A stretch of DNA of 36,053 bases from Nitrospirota bacterium. Lineage in GTDB: Bacteria; CG2-30-53-67; CG2-30-70-394. Below the pieces are notes generated by a model, which had not been told where the DNA came from, ran no database searches, and saw only the letters and a program-made list of their open reading frames with translations. Positions 1 to 12,302 of the stretch are shown here, piece by piece. A program made the translations under genes and the position numbers. Each line of letters opens with the position of its first letter. The first letter of the stretch is position 1. The stretch spans positions 1 to 36,053 of the forward strand of contig JASFUG010000003.1 in assembly GCA_050050395.1 (NCBI GenBank), written 5' to 3'.

Positions 1-42
1 GGAGTGCCGCGGTTCTTTAACCCGTAGCACGAGGAGGTCGTC

Positions 43-2160
43 ATGATCCATTCACGAGAGGGAAGTATACCGGTGATCCGCGGCAGGCGCTGGTTCTCGA
101 TGTTGTTCGTTGCTGCGCTCGCCCTGATCTTCACGCCGGACGCCGGGGCGTTTTCCAGCTTCGGTAACGGCAATTGCTCGGATTGCCACAGCAATGTCTT
201 CGCTGGCGGATCCGACTCCGCTGGCCATCAGGCGCACCTCGGGCTGGGTCTCCCGGACAGCTGCAACACATGCCATGTCTCCATCGGCGACAACCCATCC
301 ACGAGCCGATGCAACCAGTGCCATGTCGGGGCCGGCTTACGCCAGCACCATCGCTGGGCGAGTGCGCACGACTGCGCCCCCTGCCACTCCAACCCCGAGT
401 TCCCAGACCCGGAGAACACTGCGGTGCCGGGCTATGCCAACATCACGGCGGCGCTGGACCCCTGCGACGGCTCCGAGGAGCTGTTTGGTCCCAACGTGCC
501 GTTTGGCGCCGGGTCTTTCACCTTCAGCCTCGACAACGATGGCGACGGACTGACGGATGGCGACGATGACGACTGTGCACCGGCAGCGGAGTGCGGTAAC
601 GGCATCGTCGAGGGGGGCGAGGACTGCGACGACGGCAACATCGCCGACGGCGACTGCTGTAGCGCCACCTGTCAGTACGAGGCCGCCGATAGCTTCTGCG
701 ACGATGGCGACTTCTGTACCGACGGCGATGCCTGCGACGGTGCCGGCATCTGCGTGGCCGGTGGTGCCCGTAACTGCAGCGACGGCGTCGGCTGTACCGT
801 CGATTCTTGCGACTCGGTGAACGCCACCTGTGTCCACACTCCAGACGACTCGGCATGCGCGGACGACGGCCTGTTCTGCAACGGCGAGGAGTTCTGTGAC
901 GCGGTGAACGATTGCGCCTCGACCGGCAACCCGTGCGACGTCGGGACCGTTTGCAACGACGCGAACGACACCTGCGACCCGGAGCCGGCCTGCGGCAACG
1001 GCGTGGTGGAGCCCGGCGAGGAGTGCGATGGCGGCCCGTGCTGCGCGGCGGACTGCACATTTGCCGCGGCCGGCAGCGCCTGCGACGACGGCGACTTCTG
1101 CACCGACGGTGACGCCTGCGACGGTGCCGGTAGCTGCCAGGCGGGAGGGCCCACCGACTGCAGCGACGGCGTCGCCTGTACCGTCGACACCTGCGACTCG
1201 GCGAACGCCACGTGTGTCCACATCCCCGATGACGGCTTCTGCGACAACGGTGCCTTCTGCGACGGTGTCGAGATCTGCGATCCCATCGACGACTGCACCT
1301 CCCCCGGCGATCCCTGTCCTGCGGGCACGATGTGCGACGAGGCGACCGATGCCTGCGAGCCCATCGCCGGCTGTGGCGATGGCGTCCTCCAGCCCGGCGA
1401 GGAGTGTGACGACGGCAATACGGCCGACGGCGACTGCTGTGGCGCCGACTGTCAGTTCGAGGCCGCCGGAAGCCTCTGTGACGACGGCCAGTTCTGCACC
1501 GTGAGCGAGGTGTGTGACGGTGCCGGCGCCTGCGGTGACGGCCTGCCCCTCGACTGCGGCGACGGCATCGCCTGTACGAACGATGCCTGTGACGAGGCGA
1601 ACGCCACCTGCGTCCACACTCCGAACGACGCCAACTGCGACGACGACGGCCTGTTCTGCACCGGCCTGGAGTTCTGTGATCCGGCCAACGATTGCTCGTC
1701 CACGGGTGATCCCTGCGGCGCTGGCACGACGTGCAACGAAGACCTGGATAGCTGCGATCCTTCCGCAGAGATCGTCGACCTAGACATTCAGCGCCTCAAG
1801 GTCAACAGGCGTGTGCGGGTCGGACGCCGAGTGCGGATTGCGCTCAAGGTCTGGAACGACGGGGAGGTGGACGGCGCGCGTCCCGCGACCGTGGTGGGCG
1901 TGCAGGATGGCGTGGAGGTCTACCGCGAGACCCTGGACGTGTCCGATCCGCCGGAAGATGGCGCGACCCGGGTGCGGTTCCCAACGTACGTGCCACTAGC
2001 GCCCGGCGTCATTACGTGGACCGCGACCCTTGACGACGACGACCCGGACATCGATGAAGCTACCGCGAGGACGCGGGTGGTGGCACGGCGCGTCCGCCCT
2101 GCGGAGCCGGCGGGTGGCGACGACGACCATGACGAAGAGCGCGATGACGACCGTCGCTGA
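43..2160 (+). CDS. Secreted multiheme (4 x CxxCH) cytochrome c domain fused to three cysteine-rich repeat modules (Myxococcus Cys-rich/DUF4215-like) and a C-terminal beta-rich domain
   Basis: GAGGAGG RBS before ATG 43; signal peptide ending AGA|FS; CSDCH, CNTCH, CNQCH, CAPCH; DNDGDGLTD acidic motif; three CG[ND]G.....E.CD.G modules; C-terminal ~100 aa non-Cys domain. Confidence 0.85.
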   Translation: MIHSREGSIPVIRGRRWFSMLFVAALALIFTPDAGAFSSFGNGNCSDCHSNVFAGGSDSAGHQAHLGLGLPDSCNTCHVSIGDNPSTSRCNQCHVGAGLRQHHRWASAHDCAPCHSNPEFPDPENTAVPGYANITAALDPCDGSEELFGPNVPFGAGSFTFSLDNDGDGLTDGDDDDCAPAAECGNGIVEGGEDCDDGNIADGDCCSATCQYEAADSFCDDGDFCTDGDACDGAGICVAGGARNCSDGVGCTVDSCDSVNATCVHTPDDSACADDGLFCNGEEFCDAVNDCASTGNPCDVGTVCNDANDTCDPEPACGNGVVEPGEECDGGPCCAADCTFAAAGSACDDGDFCTDGDACDGAGSCQAGGPTDCSDGVACTVDTCDSANATCVHIPDDGFCDNGAFCDGVEICDPIDDCTSPGDPCPAGTMCDEATDACEPIAGCGDGVLQPGEECDDGNTADGDCCGADCQFEAAGSLCDDGQFCTVSEVCDGAGACGDGLPLDCGDGIACTNDACDEANATCVHTPNDANCDDDGLFCTGLEFCDPANDCSSTGDPCGAGTTCNEDLDSCDPSAEIVDLDIQRLKVNRRVRVGRRVRIALKVWNDGEVDGARPATVVGVQDGVEVYRETLDVSDPPEDGATRVRFPTYVPLAPGVITWTATLDDDDPDIDEATARTRVVARRVRPAEPAGGDDDHDEERDDDRR
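592..1770 (+). repeat. Intragenic tandem triplication of a ~130-aa Cys/Asp-rich module
   Basis: Modules start at 592 (CGNGIVEGGEDCDDGN), 991 (CGNGVVEPGEECDGG), 1372 (CGDGVLQPGEECDDGN); each contains CDDG.FCT...CDGAG.C, C.DG..CT.D.CD..NATCVH and G.FC.G.E.CD. Confidence 0.9.
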
Positions 2161-2260: not shown

Positions 2261-3028
2261 TCACGTCGCGGGAGACGGCGCGGCACCGATCTCATGCAGG
2301 AAGCGGTCGAAGAGCTCCAGCCCCGGCCACTGGCGCCGGCGCAGGGGGGTGTGGCGCGCGACCCAGTGCGGCACCAGGGTCAGGGGAATGAGACACGGCT
2401 CGATCCCGGCCACGGCGGCGGTGAGCCGCGCGAGCGGCGCCGCCAACGGTACGGGCATGTCCACCTTGGCGATGTCGTGGTCGTACGGCGTCCGGCACCA
2501 CTCGGCGGGCGACGTCACGTTGAAGTCGCGGCACACCACCGGCCGGTCGCCATGGATGCTGCACGACTCGTCCTCCAGGAACGGGCACGCCATGCCGAGA
2601 GTGAAGTAGCGCCGCGCGATGGGGAGGGACGACTCGCCGGTGAGGCGCGGTGCGAGCAGCTCGTCGACCATGGCCTCCGCCCGCAGGATCTCGACGATGC
2701 GCGCGAAGCGCTGCACCACCACCCGCCGGCGCGCCGGGGTGAGGCTATCGAGGAGATCAACGATGGCGAACGCCTCGGGGGGCGACACGGGCACCATGTG
2801 CCGGCAGCAAGCGCCGCAGCCGGCCCCGCAGGAGATCCGGCGCCCGGTCTGCTCCTCGATCTGCACCGCACGGGCCACCAGGGCGTTGGTCACCTCGTAG
2901 GCGATCCGCACCAATCCAGCGAGGCCCATCGATCCGGTGGTTACCGCCACCTTGCCGCGGATCACGCCGTCGGGCGTCGGCAGCTCGATTGCCCTCAGGA
3001 CCATCCCCGGCGGTAGGTTGCTCTCCAT
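2261..3028 (-). CDS. YkgJ-family (CxxCxxCC) zinc/iron-chelating cysteine cluster protein
   Basis: SCGAGCGACCRH and ACPFLEDESCSIHGDRPVVCRDF motifs; start reassigned to ATG 3028 behind GAAGGGAAGG. Confidence 0.85.
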   Translation of the reverse strand: MESNLPPGMVLRAIELPTPDGVIRGKVAVTTGSMGLAGLVRIAYEVTNALVARAVQIEEQTGRRISCGAGCGACCRHMVPVSPPEAFAIVDLLDSLTPARRRVVVQRFARIVEILRAEAMVDELLAPRLTGESSLPIARRYFTLGMACPFLEDESCSIHGDRPVVCRDFNVTSPAEWCRTPYDHDIAKVDMPVPLAAPLARLTAAVAGIEPCLIPLTLVPHWVARHTPLRRRQWPGLELFDRFLHEIGAAPSPAT

Positions 3029-3297
3029 CACCTTCCCTTCTCGCGGTGCAGCAGTCGTCAACGGCTTCGCCCCGGTGGAGCCCACCGGAGACGACGAGGA
3101 GACCGGTGCGCCCGTGGCGTCACTCTAACCGGACCACGGCGGGTCGTGACAACTTTGCATTGCTGGCCCCGTCCCCCGACCCTGGGGCGGTCCTGAGTTG
3201 GAGGCGGAGAAAAGGGGCCGATTCGCCGAGGCCGGCCGCTGTGGTGGGCGTGGGTGGCGACGCCGGCCCGGCACGGAGTCGCCCATGATGCGGAAAG

Positions 3298-5001
3298 GTG
3301 ACAGCCATCGCTGAGCAGATCGACACCCCGGACCCCGCTGCCGATGCGCTGGAGGCGGTGGTGCGCTATCACGAGCGCACCAAGCACCAGCCGAACCGCT
3401 ACGCGCGCTCCCTTGGCTACATGGACTGGGCGACGCAGCCCGATCCGTTTCGCCGCTTCATGGGTGCGCCGCTCGTCGCCCTGGACCGGGTGGAGCCCGG
3501 CTCGGTACCGACCTACGACGCCCTGTTCGGCGGAGGCGCCATCGCTTCCCGGCCGGTGGATCGCGCAGCGATCTCGCAGCTCTTCTTCGACAGCCTCGCC
3601 CTCTCGGCGTGGAAGGTGTACGGGCCGTCGCGCTGGTCCCTGCGGGTCAACCCCTCCAGCGGCAACCTCCACCCCACCGAGGGCTATCTCGTGGCCGGGC
3701 CAATCGCGGGGCTGACCGATCAGGCCGGCGTCTACCACTATGCGCCCCACGAGCACGCCCTGGAGGAGCGCTGGACTCTGGAGCCGGCGGCCTGGGAGGC
3801 GTTGCGACGCGGGTGGCCCGACGGCACCGTGTTCGTCGGCCTCACTAGCATCTACTGGCGGGAGGCGTGGAAGTACGGTGAGCGCGCCTTCCGCTACTGC
3901 CAGCACGACGTGGGTCATGCGATGGCGGCCATTGCCATCGCCGCGCGGATCCTTGGGTGGTCGGCCGTGTTGCTGGAGGGATCACCCGACGCGGCCCTGG
4001 CCGGTCTGCTGGCGATCGACCGGCAGGAAGGGATCGAGGCGGAGCACCCGGATTGCCTGATCGCGGTCGTGCCCGCCGGCGCAGTGGAGGACCTAGCAGC
4101 GGCACGCAGGTGGCAGATCCCGACCGCAGTGCTGGCGGAGCTCGCCGGTCGTGAACCGGCCGGCGTTCCCAGTCGATTGAGCGGCGACCACCACCCGTGG
4201 CCGGTCATCGACACGGTGTCGGAGGCCGCGACCAAGGACGCCCCGCCTGGCGAGGGCTTCTCGGATCCGGCGCCGCACGGCGCCACGCCTCCGGCATCGC
4301 ATCGCCCTTCACTCTCCGCCCGCCAGATCGTCCGCCAGCGGCGCAGCGCCGTGGCCATGGACGGTGCCACGGCAATCGACCGGGAGGCGTTCTACCGGAT
4401 GCTCCAGGCGGTGGTTCCGGCGACCAACGGCGCCGTTTTCGGCGCCCTCCCGTGGCGACCCCGGGTCCACCTGGCGATATTCGTCCACCGCGTGCACGAC
4501 CTCGTCCCGGGCCTCTATCTCCTGGTCCGTGAGGCCAGTGCAGCGGAGAGACTGCGCGAGACCATCACCGGGCCCGTCCTCTGGGAGCTCGCCGATGGCT
4601 GCCCCGACGGCCTCGGCCTTTACCTACTGGAGCGGGGCGACTTCCGCGACGGCGCGCGCCTGGTCTCCTGCCAACAGGAGATTGCCAGCGACGGCGCGTT
4701 CGCCCTCGGGATGCTCGCGGAGTTCGAGGGGCCGATCGCCGACTACGGCCCGTGGTTCTACAAGCGGCTGTTCTGGGAGACCGGCGCGATCGGCCAGGTC
4801 CTCTACCTGGAGGCCGAGGCCGCCGGCATCCGCGCCACCGGCATCGGATGTTTCTTCGACGACGTGATGCACCAGATCCTCGGTATCGAGGACCGCCGCC
4901 TCCAGTCCCTCTACCACTTCACCGTCGGCGGCCCCCTCGACGACCCCCGCCTCCGCACCGAGCCCCCGTACGCGCATCTGAAATCAGGAGCATCCGGCTG
5001 A
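3298..5001 (+). CDS. SagB/ThcOx-family nitroreductase-fold dehydrogenase (two domains)
   Basis: YHERTKH, LRVNPSSGNLHPTEGY, REAWKYGERAFRYCQHDVGH, RQRRSAVAMDG, TGIGCFFDD, YHFTVG. Confidence 0.9.
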   Translation: MTAIAEQIDTPDPAADALEAVVRYHERTKHQPNRYARSLGYMDWATQPDPFRRFMGAPLVALDRVEPGSVPTYDALFGGGAIASRPVDRAAISQLFFDSLALSAWKVYGPSRWSLRVNPSSGNLHPTEGYLVAGPIAGLTDQAGVYHYAPHEHALEERWTLEPAAWEALRRGWPDGTVFVGLTSIYWREAWKYGERAFRYCQHDVGHAMAAIAIAARILGWSAVLLEGSPDAALAGLLAIDRQEGIEAEHPDCLIAVVPAGAVEDLAAARRWQIPTAVLAELAGREPAGVPSRLSGDHHPWPVIDTVSEAATKDAPPGEGFSDPAPHGATPPASHRPSLSARQIVRQRRSAVAMDGATAIDREAFYRMLQAVVPATNGAVFGALPWRPRVHLAIFVHRVHDLVPGLYLLVREASAAERLRETITGPVLWELADGCPDGLGLYLLERGDFRDGARLVSCQQEIASDGAFALGMLAEFEGPIADYGPWFYKRLFWETGAIGQVLYLEAEAAGIRATGIGCFFDDVMHQILGIEDRRLQSLYHFTVGGPLDDPRLRTEPPYAHLKSGASG

Positions 5002-5099
5002 TGGGGTCGAGTTGGCAGCCGCTCTTCACTGCGGGCAAACTCGTCCACGGACTGACTCGAATCACGGCGACGGTAATCACTGAGCCAGTGGTGCTGTGA

Positions 5100-5438
5100 A
5101 TGAAACTGCCAAACGCGGAGAAGGCGAAGGTCGACCGGGAGAAGGTCACGGGGTACCTGCTATGCACTTCGCATTCCGATGGCGCCAATAAGGCTGCTTT
5201 TTTCTCCCGGTACGGTTTCACCGCGGGAGCGTGGGAGGTGCTCGCTGAGGCATTGCAAGACCACGGGAGGTCGCACCCTGTGTGTGGATCAGTGCCCTCC
5301 GCCTACGGAACGAGGTACAGTGTGGACGGACCACTCAAGAGCCCCGATGGGCGGAATCCGAAGGTGAGAACCGTTTGGATCGCTGAACGTGGAAGCGAGA
5401 CCCCGAGGCTGATAACGGCCTACCCGGTGAAGGAGTGA
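5100..5438 (+). CDS. DUF6883-like protein (putative toxin/nuclease component)
   Basis: MKLPNAEKA.V..EK..GYLL..SH.DG..KA.FF, YGTRY...G.LKSPDGR...VRTVWI, PRLITAYP; recognised from pattern only. Confidence 0.75.
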   Translation: MKLPNAEKAKVDREKVTGYLLCTSHSDGANKAAFFSRYGFTAGAWEVLAEALQDHGRSHPVCGSVPSAYGTRYSVDGPLKSPDGRNPKVRTVWIAERGSETPRLITAYPVKE

Positions 5439-5441
5439 GCT

Positions 5442-5672
5442 GTGATCCGAGAGCATGATCGCGTCGTCTTAGTCGCCGACGTGCCTGAACAGGATATCAA
5501 GGCCGGCGACGTCGGGACCGTTGTCCATGTCTACTCCGGGGGTGCCGCCTACGAGGTGGAGCTGATGACCCTGACCGGGGAGACCGTTGCCGTGCTCACC
5601 CTGTCCGCCGACCAGGTCCGAGAGGTACGCGCAGGAGAAGTCGCCCACGCCCGCCCCCGCGAGGCGGCCTGA
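5442..5672 (+). CDS. DUF4926-like small protein (putative partner/antitoxin)
   Basis: EHDRVVL..DVP...IKAGDVGTVVHVY....AYEVE......GET.AV.T; AAGGAG RBS inside the end of the upstream gene; 3-nt gap. Confidence 0.8.
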   Translation: MIREHDRVVLVADVPEQDIKAGDVGTVVHVYSGGAAYEVELMTLTGETVAVLTLSADQVREVRAGEVAHARPREAA

Positions 5673-6051
5673 GCAGCTTCGTCACACGCCTTGCGCGCCC
5701 GGCCGCTTACCGCGGAGGACGTCAAGGTTCGCAAAAGGCCTGGCGGTAACCTGCCATCATCGCTCGCCGCCGCGAGGCGTGCGGAGGTGGCGGCGCGGTT
5801 GGTTTCAACGTAACGACACCAGGGCGCAAAGAGGTTGACCTACGGGGCAAGCGACGCCCGGCCGGTTCACTGACGGCCCTTCCGTTGGGCCGGATCGGCC
5901 GTGCGAAATGCGATAGCGCCGGCCAGACCCTCGCAACTAGTCTCCGTAGGCTACGAAGCGTGGGAGACCTAACGTCGTCTTCTTTCGCCTATTTGCCAGA
6001 TCTTGTTACCGACCATCTTTTAGGGAGATCCAATAAACGCAACCGAAGCCT

Positions 6052-10044: not shown

Positions 10045-10644
10045 GTGAATACCTTCGACCTCTACCTCTACATCGACGGCGTCCCCACCGTGGACCAGGT
10101 CAGCCGTGTCCTGCACGAGTTCTCCGCCCAGTGGGACGGGCAGATGAGCTGGTGGGTGACGGACCCCAAGGATCGCGGTTCCGGCGTACGCTGCGGTCTG
10201 CTGATCGAGCCGCACGTCGCGCCTGTCGCCGGCCGCCTCTCCCATGCGGCCATGGCGGGCATCGCCATCTCCACCGACGAGGCGCGCGCCGACAAGGACT
10301 TCGTCAATCAGCTCAACGTGGCGGCGGCCCTGCATCGCGCCCTGGGCGGCTCCCTCTACGATCCGCAGGGCGATGCGCTCCTCGCCACCCGCGACGACCT
10401 GAGCGAGTTCGCCACCACCAAGGTGGTGCAGTACTTCAACCAGGGAGAGAGCTTCCAGCGCGAGGTGGAGGCGGCGGCGGAAACGCGCGAGCTCCTCGGT
10501 GGCAGCGCCCTGTGGGAGCCGAGCGAGGAAGAGTTAGACGACATCATTCGCGAGAACCGGGGGCTGATGGTGGTCGGTCTGATCAGCCTCGTCTTTCTGG
10601 CCATCTTCGTGGCGATGGCGGTCCAGAAATCGTGCGGAGGGTGA
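10045..10644 (+). CDS. Hypothetical protein with C-terminal membrane anchor
   Basis: GAGGG RBS, GTG start, GC3-rich codons, C-terminal GLMVVGLISLVFLAIFVAMAV helix. Confidence 0.75.
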   Translation: MNTFDLYLYIDGVPTVDQVSRVLHEFSAQWDGQMSWWVTDPKDRGSGVRCGLLIEPHVAPVAGRLSHAAMAGIAISTDEARADKDFVNQLNVAAALHRALGGSLYDPQGDALLATRDDLSEFATTKVVQYFNQGESFQREVEAAAETRELLGGSALWEPSEEELDDIIRENRGLMVVGLISLVFLAIFVAMAVQKSCGG

Positions 10645-10648
10645 GGGG

Positions 10649-11353
10649 ATGGACGTCGGGGAACGGAGACACGGGAGTAGGGTGATCGCGGCTCCGCGAC
10701 GCGCCGGGCGATGGTTGTGCGCCCTGGCGGTGGCGGCGGCGATGACATTGCCGGTCCGGGGCAACGCATTCGTACCGGTGATCGCCGCCCGTGCGGCGGT
10801 CGCCAATGCCGCCGCCACCGCGGCCCTGGCTACGGCCGCGGTGGCCCACGGCGCAGCGGCCCACGCCCTGGCAGGGGCGGCCGTGCTCCACGCGGCACCG
10901 GTGCCCCTGGGGTTCGCCTACGGCGGGGTATCGGCGGTGCGCGGGCTGCACCTCGGTGGAGCCGGCTTTCTCACCGCGGGCGCCGCGGGTGTCGAGTCGG
11001 GGTTGGCGTTGACCGGCACGGCGATCGCGCTGGTGGGGGGCGGGGTGGCCCTGTTCCCGGCGCCGGGGATTCCCCTGCCGATCCGCATCGGCGCCGCCGG
11101 CGTGGCGGTGCACGGTGCCGGGGTGGCCGGCCACGCGGGGATCGCCGCGCCTGTCCATCTGCACATCGCCGGGACCGAGCTGCACCTCGCGGCGGCCTCC
11201 GGCATGGGAACCGTCGCCAGCGCCGCGGTCGCCACCACTCACGCCGGCATCACGGGCTTCACCATGTCCGCCGCGGCCTGGGAGGCGACCCTCGCTCGCT
11301 TCGCCGCCCACGCGGCGGTCGTCAGCATCCTTCTTCCACCACCCATCCTGTAA
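10649..11353 (+). CDS. Hypothetical exported/membrane Ala/Gly/His-rich protein
   Basis: Starts 4 nt after upstream stop with GAGGGG RBS; GC3-rich codons; signal-like segment RWLCALAVAAAMTLPVRGNA|F. Confidence 0.6.
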   Translation: MDVGERRHGSRVIAAPRRAGRWLCALAVAAAMTLPVRGNAFVPVIAARAAVANAAATAALATAAVAHGAAAHALAGAAVLHAAPVPLGFAYGGVSAVRGLHLGGAGFLTAGAAGVESGLALTGTAIALVGGGVALFPAPGIPLPIRIGAAGVAVHGAGVAGHAGIAAPVHLHIAGTELHLAAASGMGTVASAAVATTHAGITGFTMSAAAWEATLARFAAHAAVVSILLPPPIL

Positions 11354-11379
11354 CTGCTGGACTCACGGAGCATGTACCT

Positions 11380-11461
11380 GTAGGAGCGAGCTTGCTCGCG
11401 AACCCGGACCATTGCCCACCGTGCGTCTGAGGCGTCGCTTTGCGGCCAAGGTCGCTTCGAC
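11380..11461. repeat. GTAG-type REP doublet (one intact, one degenerate inverted copy)
   Basis: GTAGGAGCGAGCTTGCTCGCGAA (11380-11402) and, on the minus strand, GTCGAAGCGACCTTGGCCGCAAA (11461-11439). Confidence 0.75.
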
Positions 11462-11486
11462 GGCGTGCGATCGAGCCATGCTGCTC

Positions 11487-12302
11487 CTACCAGTACCGCT
11501 CCACGTGGACCTGGCCGGGCTGCTTCTTGGAGTGCTCGCGGAATCCCTCGACTGCGAGCCTCTCGGACATCGACTCGATCATCGCCGGGTTGCCGCACAG
11601 GAAGATGTGGGTGGTCTCCGGGGTGGGACGAAGGCCCCACGCCGCCTCCAGGTCGCCGGCCTCCCACAGGTCCTGGACGTGGCCTTCGGCGCCACGCCAT
11701 TCCACCAGCTCCTCCGCAGGCCGGCTGATGATCGGCAGATAGGTGAAGTTGGGGCACACGCGGCGCAGGGTGGAGAGCTCGGAGCGGTAGCCCAGGTCCC
11801 ACGAGTGGCGCGCGCCGTGGAGCACGGCGAAGCGCCGCTCCGTGTCACCGGTGAGGAAGGTGCGGAGCATGCTCATGTAGGGGGCCAGCCCGGTGCCGGT
11901 GGCGATCAGCGCCACGTGGCGATCGGCGGGCACCTTGTCGAGAGTGAACAGGCCGGAGCTCCTCGTTGACATCCACAGGCGGTTCCCCACTTGCAGGGCG
12001 AAGAGCCGCGGGGTGAGGGCGCCGGAGCGCACGAGAGTGATGTAGAACTCCAGATACTCCGTGGCCAGCGACGAGGAGGCGATGGAATAGGAGCGGCGGA
12101 TCAGGACATCGGGCTTGCGTTGCACCTCCTCCGGATCGCTCATGGGGTAGCGCGGCGCGCTGCCCGGCAGGGCGAGGACCGCGAACTGGCCAGGCTCGAA
12201 CGGCGGCAGCTCCCAGCCGTCGGGGACCACCCGCAGGACGATCAATCCGGGCGCCACCTCGATGCGTTGCGCGACCACGGCGTTCAGCTCCGGCGCCGCC
12301 AT
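11487..12302 (-). CDS. fpr: Ferredoxin(flavodoxin)-NADP+ reductase, bacterial type
   Basis: F.PGQF, RRSYSIASS, ATGTGLAPYMSM, FLCGNPAM, C-terminal ERYW; AGAGGAG RBS. Confidence 0.9.
   Translation of the reverse strand: MAAPELNAVVAQRIEVAPGLIVLRVVPDGWELPPFEPGQFAVLALPGSAPRYPMSDPEEVQRKPDVLIRRSYSIASSSLATEYLEFYITLVRSGALTPRLFALQVGNRLWMSTRSSGLFTLDKVPADRHVALIATGTGLAPYMSMLRTFLTGDTERRFAVLHGARHSWDLGYRSELSTLRRVCPNFTYLPIISRPAEELVEWRGAEGHVQDLWEAGDLEAAWGLRPTPETTHIFLCGNPAMIESMSERLAVEGFREHSKKQPGQVHVERYW

Follow-up and report, generated by a model that had tools for sequence, protein, structure and literature searches.

What is the role of a small multiheme cytochrome domain that stands at the front of a long, cysteine-rich, exported protein, and on which side of the outer membrane would it work? 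The question is raised by a gene near the start of a contig from a Nitrospirota bacterium (JASFUG010000003.1 of assembly GCA_050050395.1), whose full length of 36,053 nucleotides (nt) is referred to here as the window. The open reading frame (ORF) occupies positions 43..2160 of the + strand, stop codon included, starts with ATG and encodes a product of 705 amino acids (aa). An earlier note, made from the sequence of the window, had read this ORF as a signal peptide, four CxxCH motifs at nt 175-387, three modules free of CxxCH and a terminal domain, and this layout was borne out; likewise, its failure to recognise the architecture as a characterised one agrees with our Pfam and NCBIfam scans and protein database searches, which found no characterised match over the full length. 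The protein carries an N-terminal head with four conserved heme motifs and four conserved candidate distal histidines, a spacer of three modules, and a C-terminal tail domain, and these parts are exchanged among relatives. The architecture is uncharacterised but recurrent. We favour, with about even confidence, the reading that the product is a tethered electron-relay cytochrome that works outside the cell.

The CxxCH-rich head domain

We searched aa 37-180 exhaustively with HMMER against 1.84 billion cluster representatives at E<=1e-3. This returned 102 proteins of 80-1363 aa, 33 of them at E<=1e-10 and 9 at E<=1e-30, and in almost all of these representatives the match lies near the N-terminus. 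The alignment used for conservation comprises 74 of the 102 (query included), chosen for at least four CxxCH motifs in the first 175 residues. The 28 that were dropped are two c7-repeat polyheme proteins (P0048 and P0060; homologues are cited by our own identifiers) and 26 others, most of which are N-terminally truncated fragments or have only two or three motifs. This selection biases the figure for CxxCH invariance, whereas the figures for the histidines and the acidic loop are unbiased by it. The ORF and the elements of the head, with counts from the 74 aligned heads, are as follows.

43..2160, + strand: whole ORF, 705 aa, with homologues found over every part
151..582, + strand: predicted tetraheme head domain of the c3/c7 superfamily, aa 37-180, from PF14522, profile matches in the Protein Data Bank (PDB), the 102 cluster representatives and an AlphaFold2 (AF2) model with pLDDT 82.3
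175..189, + strand: CxxCH 1 (C45-H49), invariant (74/74)
226..237, + strand: candidate distal pair H62-x-x-H65 (H62 72/74, H65 74/74), aligned with the HxxH of the c7-type units of 3ov0
262..276, + strand: CxxCH 2 (C74-H78), invariant (74/74)
310..324, + strand: CxxCH 3 (C90-H94), invariant (74/74)
346..351, + strand: candidate distal pair H102-H103 (H102 66/74, H103 74/74)
373..387, + strand: CxxCH 4 (C111-H115), invariant (74/74)
463..576, + strand: segment from C141 to C178 with an LDNDGD-x3-D-x2-D-x-D-C loop (nt 529-576), a putative Ca-type loop (C141 and C178 each 70/74, L163-D168 67-71/74)

Neither the head nor the whole mature protein reached four CxxCH motifs when shuffled 20,000 times (0 of 20,000 in each case), so chance does not explain them. 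The spare histidines of the head are H62, H65, H102, H103 and H109, and the mature head has no Met, which leaves His/His as the sole standard ligation. We therefore infer that the head binds four low-spin bis-histidine (bis-His) hemes. The earlier note had proposed just such a tetraheme bis-His head, with which the conservation agrees: the CxxCH motifs are invariant among the aligned heads, and the four distal histidines are kept in all or most of them. Its remark that the spare histidines suffice for ligation stands for the four conserved ones but not for the fifth, H109, which is kept in only 2/74. The further conserved positions outside the heme motifs, each shared by 64-73 of the 74 heads, are G98-L99, E124, Y131, C141, E146, L163-D168, D172, D175, D177 and C178.

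Because four closely spaced bis-His hemes would leave no spare coordination site, electron transfer is favoured over catalysis or ligand sensing. That the protein is catalytic, turning over an external substrate as a reductase or peroxidase would, finds some encouragement in homologue P0082, which joins the head to a di-heme peroxidase/MauG domain. However, the number of conserved distal histidines equals the number of hemes, so that no five-coordinate heme is left, and the query protein contains no catalytic domain; we regard this explanation as very improbable.

Judged by its profile matches, the head is a conserved domain of about 140 residues belonging to the c3/c7 superfamily. When aa 1-180 were scanned alone, Pfam PF14522 (Cytochrome_C7) matched marginally (26.4 bits against a cut-off of 24.8), with weaker matches to the c3 families; PF14522 is not listed in the scan of the whole protein. 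By sequence comparison with the PDB, a profile built from 72 heads matched 1z1n (16-heme HmcA, E 8e-23), 3ov0 (GSU1996, E 2e-17), 1czj (cytochrome c3, E 1.8e-5) and 1kwj (cytochrome c7, E 5e-3). In the alignments of this profile, H62xxH65 and CxxCH motifs 2-4 coincide with one c7-type triheme unit, and the first CxxCH is therefore an addition. The head would thus be a c7-like triheme core (HxxH...CxxCH...CxxCH...CxxCH) with an extra N-terminal CxxCH, an HH pair and an acidic Ca-type loop. The AF2 model of the head (pLDDT 82.3, pTM 0.72) is heme-free and mostly coil with short helices.

The same comparison bears on the idea that the heads polymerise as subunits of a cytochrome filament, or nanowire. 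Some filament subunits have four hemes, as each head would, and the profile matched 8e5f weakly (E 0.011). Nevertheless, the best 60 of the 86 profile matches hold no significant similarity to filament cytochromes, room would be needed for the 520-residue C-terminal extension unless it were removed, and one chain can supply all four distal histidines. We consider a filament subunit the least credible of the explanations weighed here.

The acidic DNDGDG motif (nt 532-549) had been taken in the earlier note to lead into the stalk. That placement was not upheld, as the loop is a conserved C-terminal part of the head bracketed by C141 and C178, which probably close it with a disulfide to form a Ca-type loop. 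In most homologues the loop matches positions 11-29 of the 32 of NF033662 (acid_disulf_rpt) below the cut-off, and for the query protein neither NF033662 nor PF11617 (MopE) is listed at E<=1.

Spacer, tail and the exchange of modules

The head is followed by a stalk of three modules, a tail domain and a short charged end.

592..990, + strand: Cys/Asp-rich module 1, aa 184-316, 20 Cys, opening with a TIGR02232/DUF4215 repeat, then Dicty_CTDC-like Cys repeats
991..1371, + strand: Cys/Asp-rich module 2, aa 317-443, 20 Cys, assigned by the same scans
1372..1767, + strand: Cys/Asp-rich module 3, aa 444-575, 20 Cys, assigned by the same scans plus PF13948
1768..2112, + strand: predicted CARDB-like beta-sandwich, aa 576-690, with a conserved W-T-A-T...DDDPD acidic motif, from AF2, Foldseek and 27 carriers
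2113..2157, + strand: charged low-complexity end, aa 691-705, rich in D/E/R/H, with similar ends in 15/158 homologues

The three modules are 62-65% identical to one another, and all 20 Cys of a module are invariant across the three. Since this number is even and every Cys is conserved, each module probably forms 10 disulfides; neither CxxC nor CxxCH occurs within the stalk. TIGR02232 (myxo_disulf_rpt) matches in three stretches at 51.8 bits against a cut-off of 20.8, which confirms the identity of the myxobacterial-type CG.G..E..E.CDDGN repeats that the earlier note had recognised. PF13948 (DUF4215) scores 30.5 against a cut-off of 27, and each module scanned alone also gives weak Dicty_CTDC and disintegrin-like matches. 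Among the head homologues, the closest stalks are those of P0028 (58% identity over 246 aa), P0092 and P0081; P0028 ends inside its stalk and looks truncated.

We would also like to record that window positions 610-660, which lie in the first myxo-type repeat, draw many partial matches of 90-95% likeness from wetland DNA runs, at a depth of up to 151 (run X4). This repeat family is abundant in those wetland communities, and the apparent joints to other genes seen at 610-660 are not evidence of rearrangement in the gene.

The terminal domain noticed earlier was confirmed at aa ~573-690, with the charged end behind it. Its AF2 model is an eight-stranded sandwich (pLDDT 95.0, pTM 0.85), and the top Foldseek matches are 3idu and 2kl6, both CARDB of PF1109, at E 3.6e-6 to 3.5e-5 and TM 0.64-0.69, the best being 3idu (E 3.6e-6, TM 0.66-0.69). 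By sequence, PF07705 (CARDB) misses its gathering score (13.4 bits against 22.7, E 0.09). According to this model, then, the tail is CARDB-like in fold but not a sequence member of CARDB. P0073 (35% identity, E 3e-22) and P0058 both have a counterpart of residues 573-690 at the C-terminus, and a search among 563 candidates of 387-1234 aa found 27 carriers of the tail (query included) at E<=1e-3. In nearly all of the 27 the tail is the last domain, and the protein ends directly after it or in an acidic run.

Both ends of the protein occur with many other partners. Among the 102 representatives, the head is found with PKD in 10, with ASH/HYDIN/DUF1573 (choice-of-anchor D in NCBIfam) in 8, with DUF4215 in 7 and with MopE in 2; further partners are Big_5, He_PIG, BACON, CHRD, dockerin, TSP_3, FlgD_ig, di-heme peroxidase and other cytochrome domains, and many of the representatives that are 130-220 aa long comprise nothing but the head. 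As for the tail carriers, 4 of the 27 have a tetraheme-type head, 12 have a single CxxCH at residue 50-69 within an N-terminal domain that differs from the head, and 11 have neither (some are truncated). Their middles include choice-of-anchor D, PKD, cadherin-like, MopE and DUF4215 domains. Other middles, too, are flanked by the head and the tail: four choice-of-anchor D domains in P0073, MopE repeats in P0058 and P0186, and cadherin-like/PKD repeats in P0172 and P0183.

The closest comparison is with P0170, which is 80% identical to the query over aa 184-683, module for module and in register, and which has in place of the head a different domain of ~120 residues with a single CxxCH. P0168 and P0171 (677 and 679 aa) also have a single CxxCH near the N-terminus, and the signal-peptide n-region of P0171 resembles that of the query. 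The tails of P0168, P0170 and P0171 are 63-69% identical to the query's, P0170 being the only one aligned in full. For the single-heme replacing domain, the Atlas lead was Temptin_C (score 0.90), and Pfam gave nothing except a weak match in P0164. The alignment with P0170 indicates that head cassettes are swapped, and, taken together with the different middles between the same flanks, it follows that head, spacer and tail are separately exchangeable.

A broader proposal is that these proteins form a modular system for displaying cofactors, in which a head, an interchangeable spacer and a CARDB-like or sorting tail are combined and cells swap four-heme and single-heme cassettes on one scaffold. 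We put this forward tentatively, as less probable than not. If it is true, the cell surface or biofilm matrix would be seeded with tethered electron carriers of different potential, and conductive matrices in sediment bacteria of several phyla would have in this system a building block not described so far.

The exchange of heads can also be read in another way, namely that the protein serves primarily in the matrix or in adhesion, that the hemes are a redox sensor or a redox-controlled or metal-binding element, and that the modules and acidic loops bind Ca or other metals. That a non-homologous single-heme domain replaces the head on the same scaffold suggests that the scaffold has a role of its own; moreover, the tail fold is CARDB-like, its best structural match being a di-metal complex, and the acidic loops of homologues are related to MopE/acid_disulf repeats. 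Four close bis-His hemes, however, are typical of electron transfer and no open coordination site is conserved, while the Pfam and NCBIfam scans showed no signalling domain fused within the query protein. We judge this explanation distinctly improbable.

Export, maturation and the place of the head

By its sequence, the N-terminus is predicted to be a Sec-type signal peptide.

31..37, + strand: Shine-Dalgarno-like GAGGAGG, 5 nt before the ATG
43..150, + strand: predicted Sec-type signal peptide spanning aa 1-36; its n-region is basic, its core hydrophobic, and an A-x-A (A-G-A) site precedes F37

Position A36 is kept in 64/74 and A34 in 49/74 of the aligned head homologues, which fits a signal-peptidase I site, and the leader contains no lipobox Cys. 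The n-region holds an RR pair, but Tat export is unlikely, as most homologues start with ordinary Lys-rich Sec leaders and c-type cytochromes are matured once Sec has exported them. A promoter and terminator scan of nt 1-2400 found nothing, and ORFs in other frames or on the opposite strand over the gene (e.g., 337-1617, minus) were set aside as unsupported by-products of high G+C.

The window spans one entire contig of a genome bin of 3.12 Mb in 400 contigs, with a completeness of 84%, and in this bin we found CcmE and three CcmC/F-family genes, together with a CcdA/DsbD-type gene and DsbA-like genes; ResB was not found in it. The earlier note had pointed out that the protein needs both reduced CxxCH motifs and extensive disulfide formation. 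This double need is real, but it is ordinary for diderm bacteria, in which the reducing CcmG/DsbD branch works beside DsbA, and the genome has the genes just listed. Separately, contig C32 encodes at ~10600-12000 (+) two tandem DsbA-like thioredoxin-fold domains, each with an in-frame TGA at the start of a U-P-F-C active-site motif. This gene is probably a DsbA-like selenoprotein, and it may be relevant to the oxidation of the 60 stalk Cys.

For the place of the protein, the C-termini of the family are informative. A simple pattern of our own sorted those of 158 collected homologues: 16/158 end in a Gly run, a Cys, a hydrophobic helix and basic residues, 27/158 in the same without the Cys, 3/158 in another helix plus basic residues and 15/158 in a charged tail like the query's, and the remaining 97/158 are of none of these types, many being cut by contig ends. 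One homologue is named a MYXO-CTERM protein by its source. As the MYXO-CTERM model stays below its threshold (scores are given below), we call these C-termini sorting-signal-like and no more. As a side observation, the C-termini of the head-bearing proteins P0012, P0019, P0080, P0098 and P0113 share a conserved motif with Cys-His, Lys-Gly-Lys and His-Gly-Asp elements.

It is on the strength of the partner domains and these C-terminal tails that a surface or matrix location is favoured. Since the anchor-like tail of relatives is C-terminal, their N-terminal head would be distal by topology; the query would, by analogy, be attached through its CARDB-like tail and charged end. The earlier note's picture of a head projected on a spacer fits the family in these respects (an N-terminal head, at least 43/158 anchor-like tails, interchangeable middles), although the query itself lacks an anchor or sorting signal; the combination of a Gly-rich motif, a hydrophobic helix and a basic cluster (MYXO-CTERM/GlyGly-CTERM type) is absent, and the protein ends in its charged tail.

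Putting these observations together, we propose that three independent modules compose one Sec-exported c-type cytochrome: the head, a spacer of three tandem modules with 20 conserved Cys each, and an attachment end made of the CARDB-like beta-sandwich and its short charged tail. The apoprotein would be exported and System I (Ccm) would attach the hemes. The protein would then leave the periplasm, its C-terminal end would fasten it to the surface of the cell, to the matrix or to a mineral, and the head at the far end of the spacer would pass electrons over short range, with cytochromes of the envelope or matrix on one side and external acceptors or donors on the other.

The principal rival to this extracellular relay is a tethered electron carrier in the periplasm, whose stalk and tail would fix the head to a periplasmic or outer-membrane partner in the manner of an extended c3/c7/STC shuttle. 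The Sec signal is the only targeting feature that can be recognised, with nothing that would direct the protein to the outer membrane, and the head's nearest sequence relatives are c3/c7-type units, which are typically periplasmic. On the other hand, the family's partner domains and C-terminal tails are of surface or secreted type, with ~390 residues in the spacer and a tail besides, the stretch behind the head is long for the periplasm, and TIGR02232 and CARDB-type domains have been described for extracellular or adhesion proteins in model descriptions and published accounts. We think a periplasmic carrier unlikely, while granting it a substantial share of the remaining probability.

Several observations weigh against the extracellular relay and should be stated together. 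The known small tetraheme and triheme cytochromes (c3, c7, STC) are periplasmic. No membrane anchor or recognised sorting signal was found in the query protein, and the TIGR03901 MYXO-CTERM model reaches only 16-18 bits against a threshold of 20, in 4 of the 56 homologues scanned. DUF4215 is the sole match listed in the Pfam scan of the whole protein. Structural searches with the head model, which is apo, mostly coil and hence uninformative, returned nothing by Foldseek against the PDB at E<=0.001 and 0 chains at Z>=2 by VIA-align against 48,161 chains. The query's own neighbours are unrelated and include no porin or periplasmic cytochrome gene, and Pfam scans of 37 neighbours in 8 related loci revealed no recurring partner and no porin-cytochrome cluster. 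Among 14 genomes of the class, 3 gave a match to the heme-bearing part of the head profile, and the tail matched in 2 of 61 relatives, which makes the gene accessory; tblastn with the head, the tail and module 1 found no second copy of head or tail in the organism's own genome. Neither DsbB nor VKOR was found in the 84%-complete assembly. Finally, three exact 151-nt contigs from a metatranscriptome library (nt 37-187, 185-335 and 561-711) are a weak hint of transcription, since DNA is possible in such libraries.

The related loci were located in species genomes with an alignment of the 13 closest rows, which gave 12 loci. Compared by blastp with the upstream contig and the first 12 kb of the window, the ORFs of these 12 matched only the gene itself. 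The sole exception to the lack of a recurring neighbour is a PAS-LuxR regulator near the two closest-related loci from metagenome-assembled genomes (L013 and L005). L013, from a class-level relative, carries tandem paralogues at 699-2915 and 3641-5818 (739 and 726 aa), which are 30% identical to the query over 522 aa and 32.5% over 566 aa, respectively. The submitters' labels of the related loci are Candidatus Deferrimicrobiaceae, uncultured Nitrospirae (CG2-30-53-67), Desulfuromonadales, Chromatiales, Woeseiaceae and Gammaproteobacteria, and in the cultured Desulfuromonas versatilis a head homologue is annotated as a hypothetical protein. The records with the CG2-30-53-67 label proved identical to loci from two genomes related to the window's own at class level.

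The organism is rich in multiheme cytochromes: four or more CxxCH motifs occur in each of 26 stop-free frames of its genome, the maximum for a single frame being 13. A cluster on contig C10 has frames with 13, 12 and 11 CxxCH. Secretins are encoded by four genes, and one GspL-like match narrowly misses its cut-off. Contig C236 overlaps with the first ~145 nt of the window, differing at a single position; two DNA runs also show this difference, as A>G at position 127. On C236, ~570 nt upstream of position 43 and in the gene's orientation, lies a 180-aa membrane-anchored monoheme cytochrome c (CNDCH; positions 675-1217 of locus L002, on its minus strand), which matches Cytochrome_CBB3 and Cytochrom_C weakly. 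Downstream, the window encodes a convergent 274-aa CxxCxxCC (zinc- or iron-chelating) protein at 2261-3085 (-) and a 567-aa protein with a nitroreductase-family domain at 3298-5001 (+); we found no link of these two genes to the cytochrome gene. The gene itself was found in several wetland metagenome runs, those with a small share (X5 and X7) not being used as evidence of habitat.

Comparison with known systems

Extracellular multiheme cytochromes power the reduction of iron and humics, respiration on electrodes, and syntrophy, and the known examples come from few cultured genera. The present protein adds two modules not described as such in Pfam or NCBIfam, namely the head with its Ca-type loop (~100 clusters) and the C-terminal CARDB-like tail, and both combine with many extracellular spacers in uncultured sediment and wetland bacteria. 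The natural exchange of heads on a scaffold of 80% identity marks the head as a separable unit and offers ready boundaries for expression, spectroscopy and display constructs, while D. versatilis, as a cultured carrier of the head, opens the way to genetic tests. An abundance of multiheme cytochromes and a predicted capacity for iron reduction are described for one related lineage (PMC9386147).

Our literature searches found no description of the head, of the tail or of their combination with Cys-rich repeats, supplements lying outside their coverage. Searches for multiheme cytochromes with PKD in extracellular electron transfer, or with MYXO-CTERM, likewise returned none, and those on DUF4215 and on a cytochrome with choice-of-anchor returned unrelated work only. 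On multiheme cytochromes and CARDB, the literature returned, supplementary tables excepted, lists the domains separately.

Compared with the class III c7 cytochromes (PpcA type), c3 and GSU1996 (3ov0), the head is alike in its close CxxCH motifs and predicted His/His ligation. It differs from c3 and c7 in adding a heme motif before HxxH, the HH pair and a C-terminal extension (E124, Y131, C141, the LDNDGD loop and C178), and in being fused in the query to ~520 residues of non-cytochrome domains. Unlike conduit cytochromes of the MtrC/OmcA type, the query gives no such Pfam or NCBIfam match. Geobacter PgcA, a secreted triheme protein with repeat linkers, and the S-layer/dockerin multiheme cytochromes of methanotrophic archaea are further points of reference.

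The repeats of the stalk also have a precedent, as TIGR02232/DUF4215 is reported in secreted adhesive proteins (10.1101/2023.03.06.531300). The query shares its conserved Cys pattern, in three copies above the cut-off, with the Myxococcus cysteine-rich repeat proteins, but here each copy opens a 130-residue, 20-Cys module with Dicty_CTDC-like repeats, and the array is capped by a cytochrome. Similarly, the tail shares its predicted beta-sandwich fold with CARDB (PF07705; 3idu, PF1109 of Pyrococcus furiosus), whereas the tail family sits at the extreme C-terminus, has an acidic motif of its own and often an acidic tail, and scores below the CARDB cut-off by sequence.

A parallel in principle is OetF of syntrophic sulfate reducers, a cytochrome with a fibronectin domain (PMC10553843). 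Cytochromes of this type in extracellular electron transfer have in common with the query the joining of heme domains to extracellular spacer or adhesion domains, but the query belongs to another family, with a small four-motif head, a Cys-rich spacer, a CARDB-like tail and no conduit gene cluster. Fusions of cytochromes with adhesion domains are thus already known in principle, and what is notable here is the pair of undescribed modules and the clear evidence for the swapping of head cassettes.

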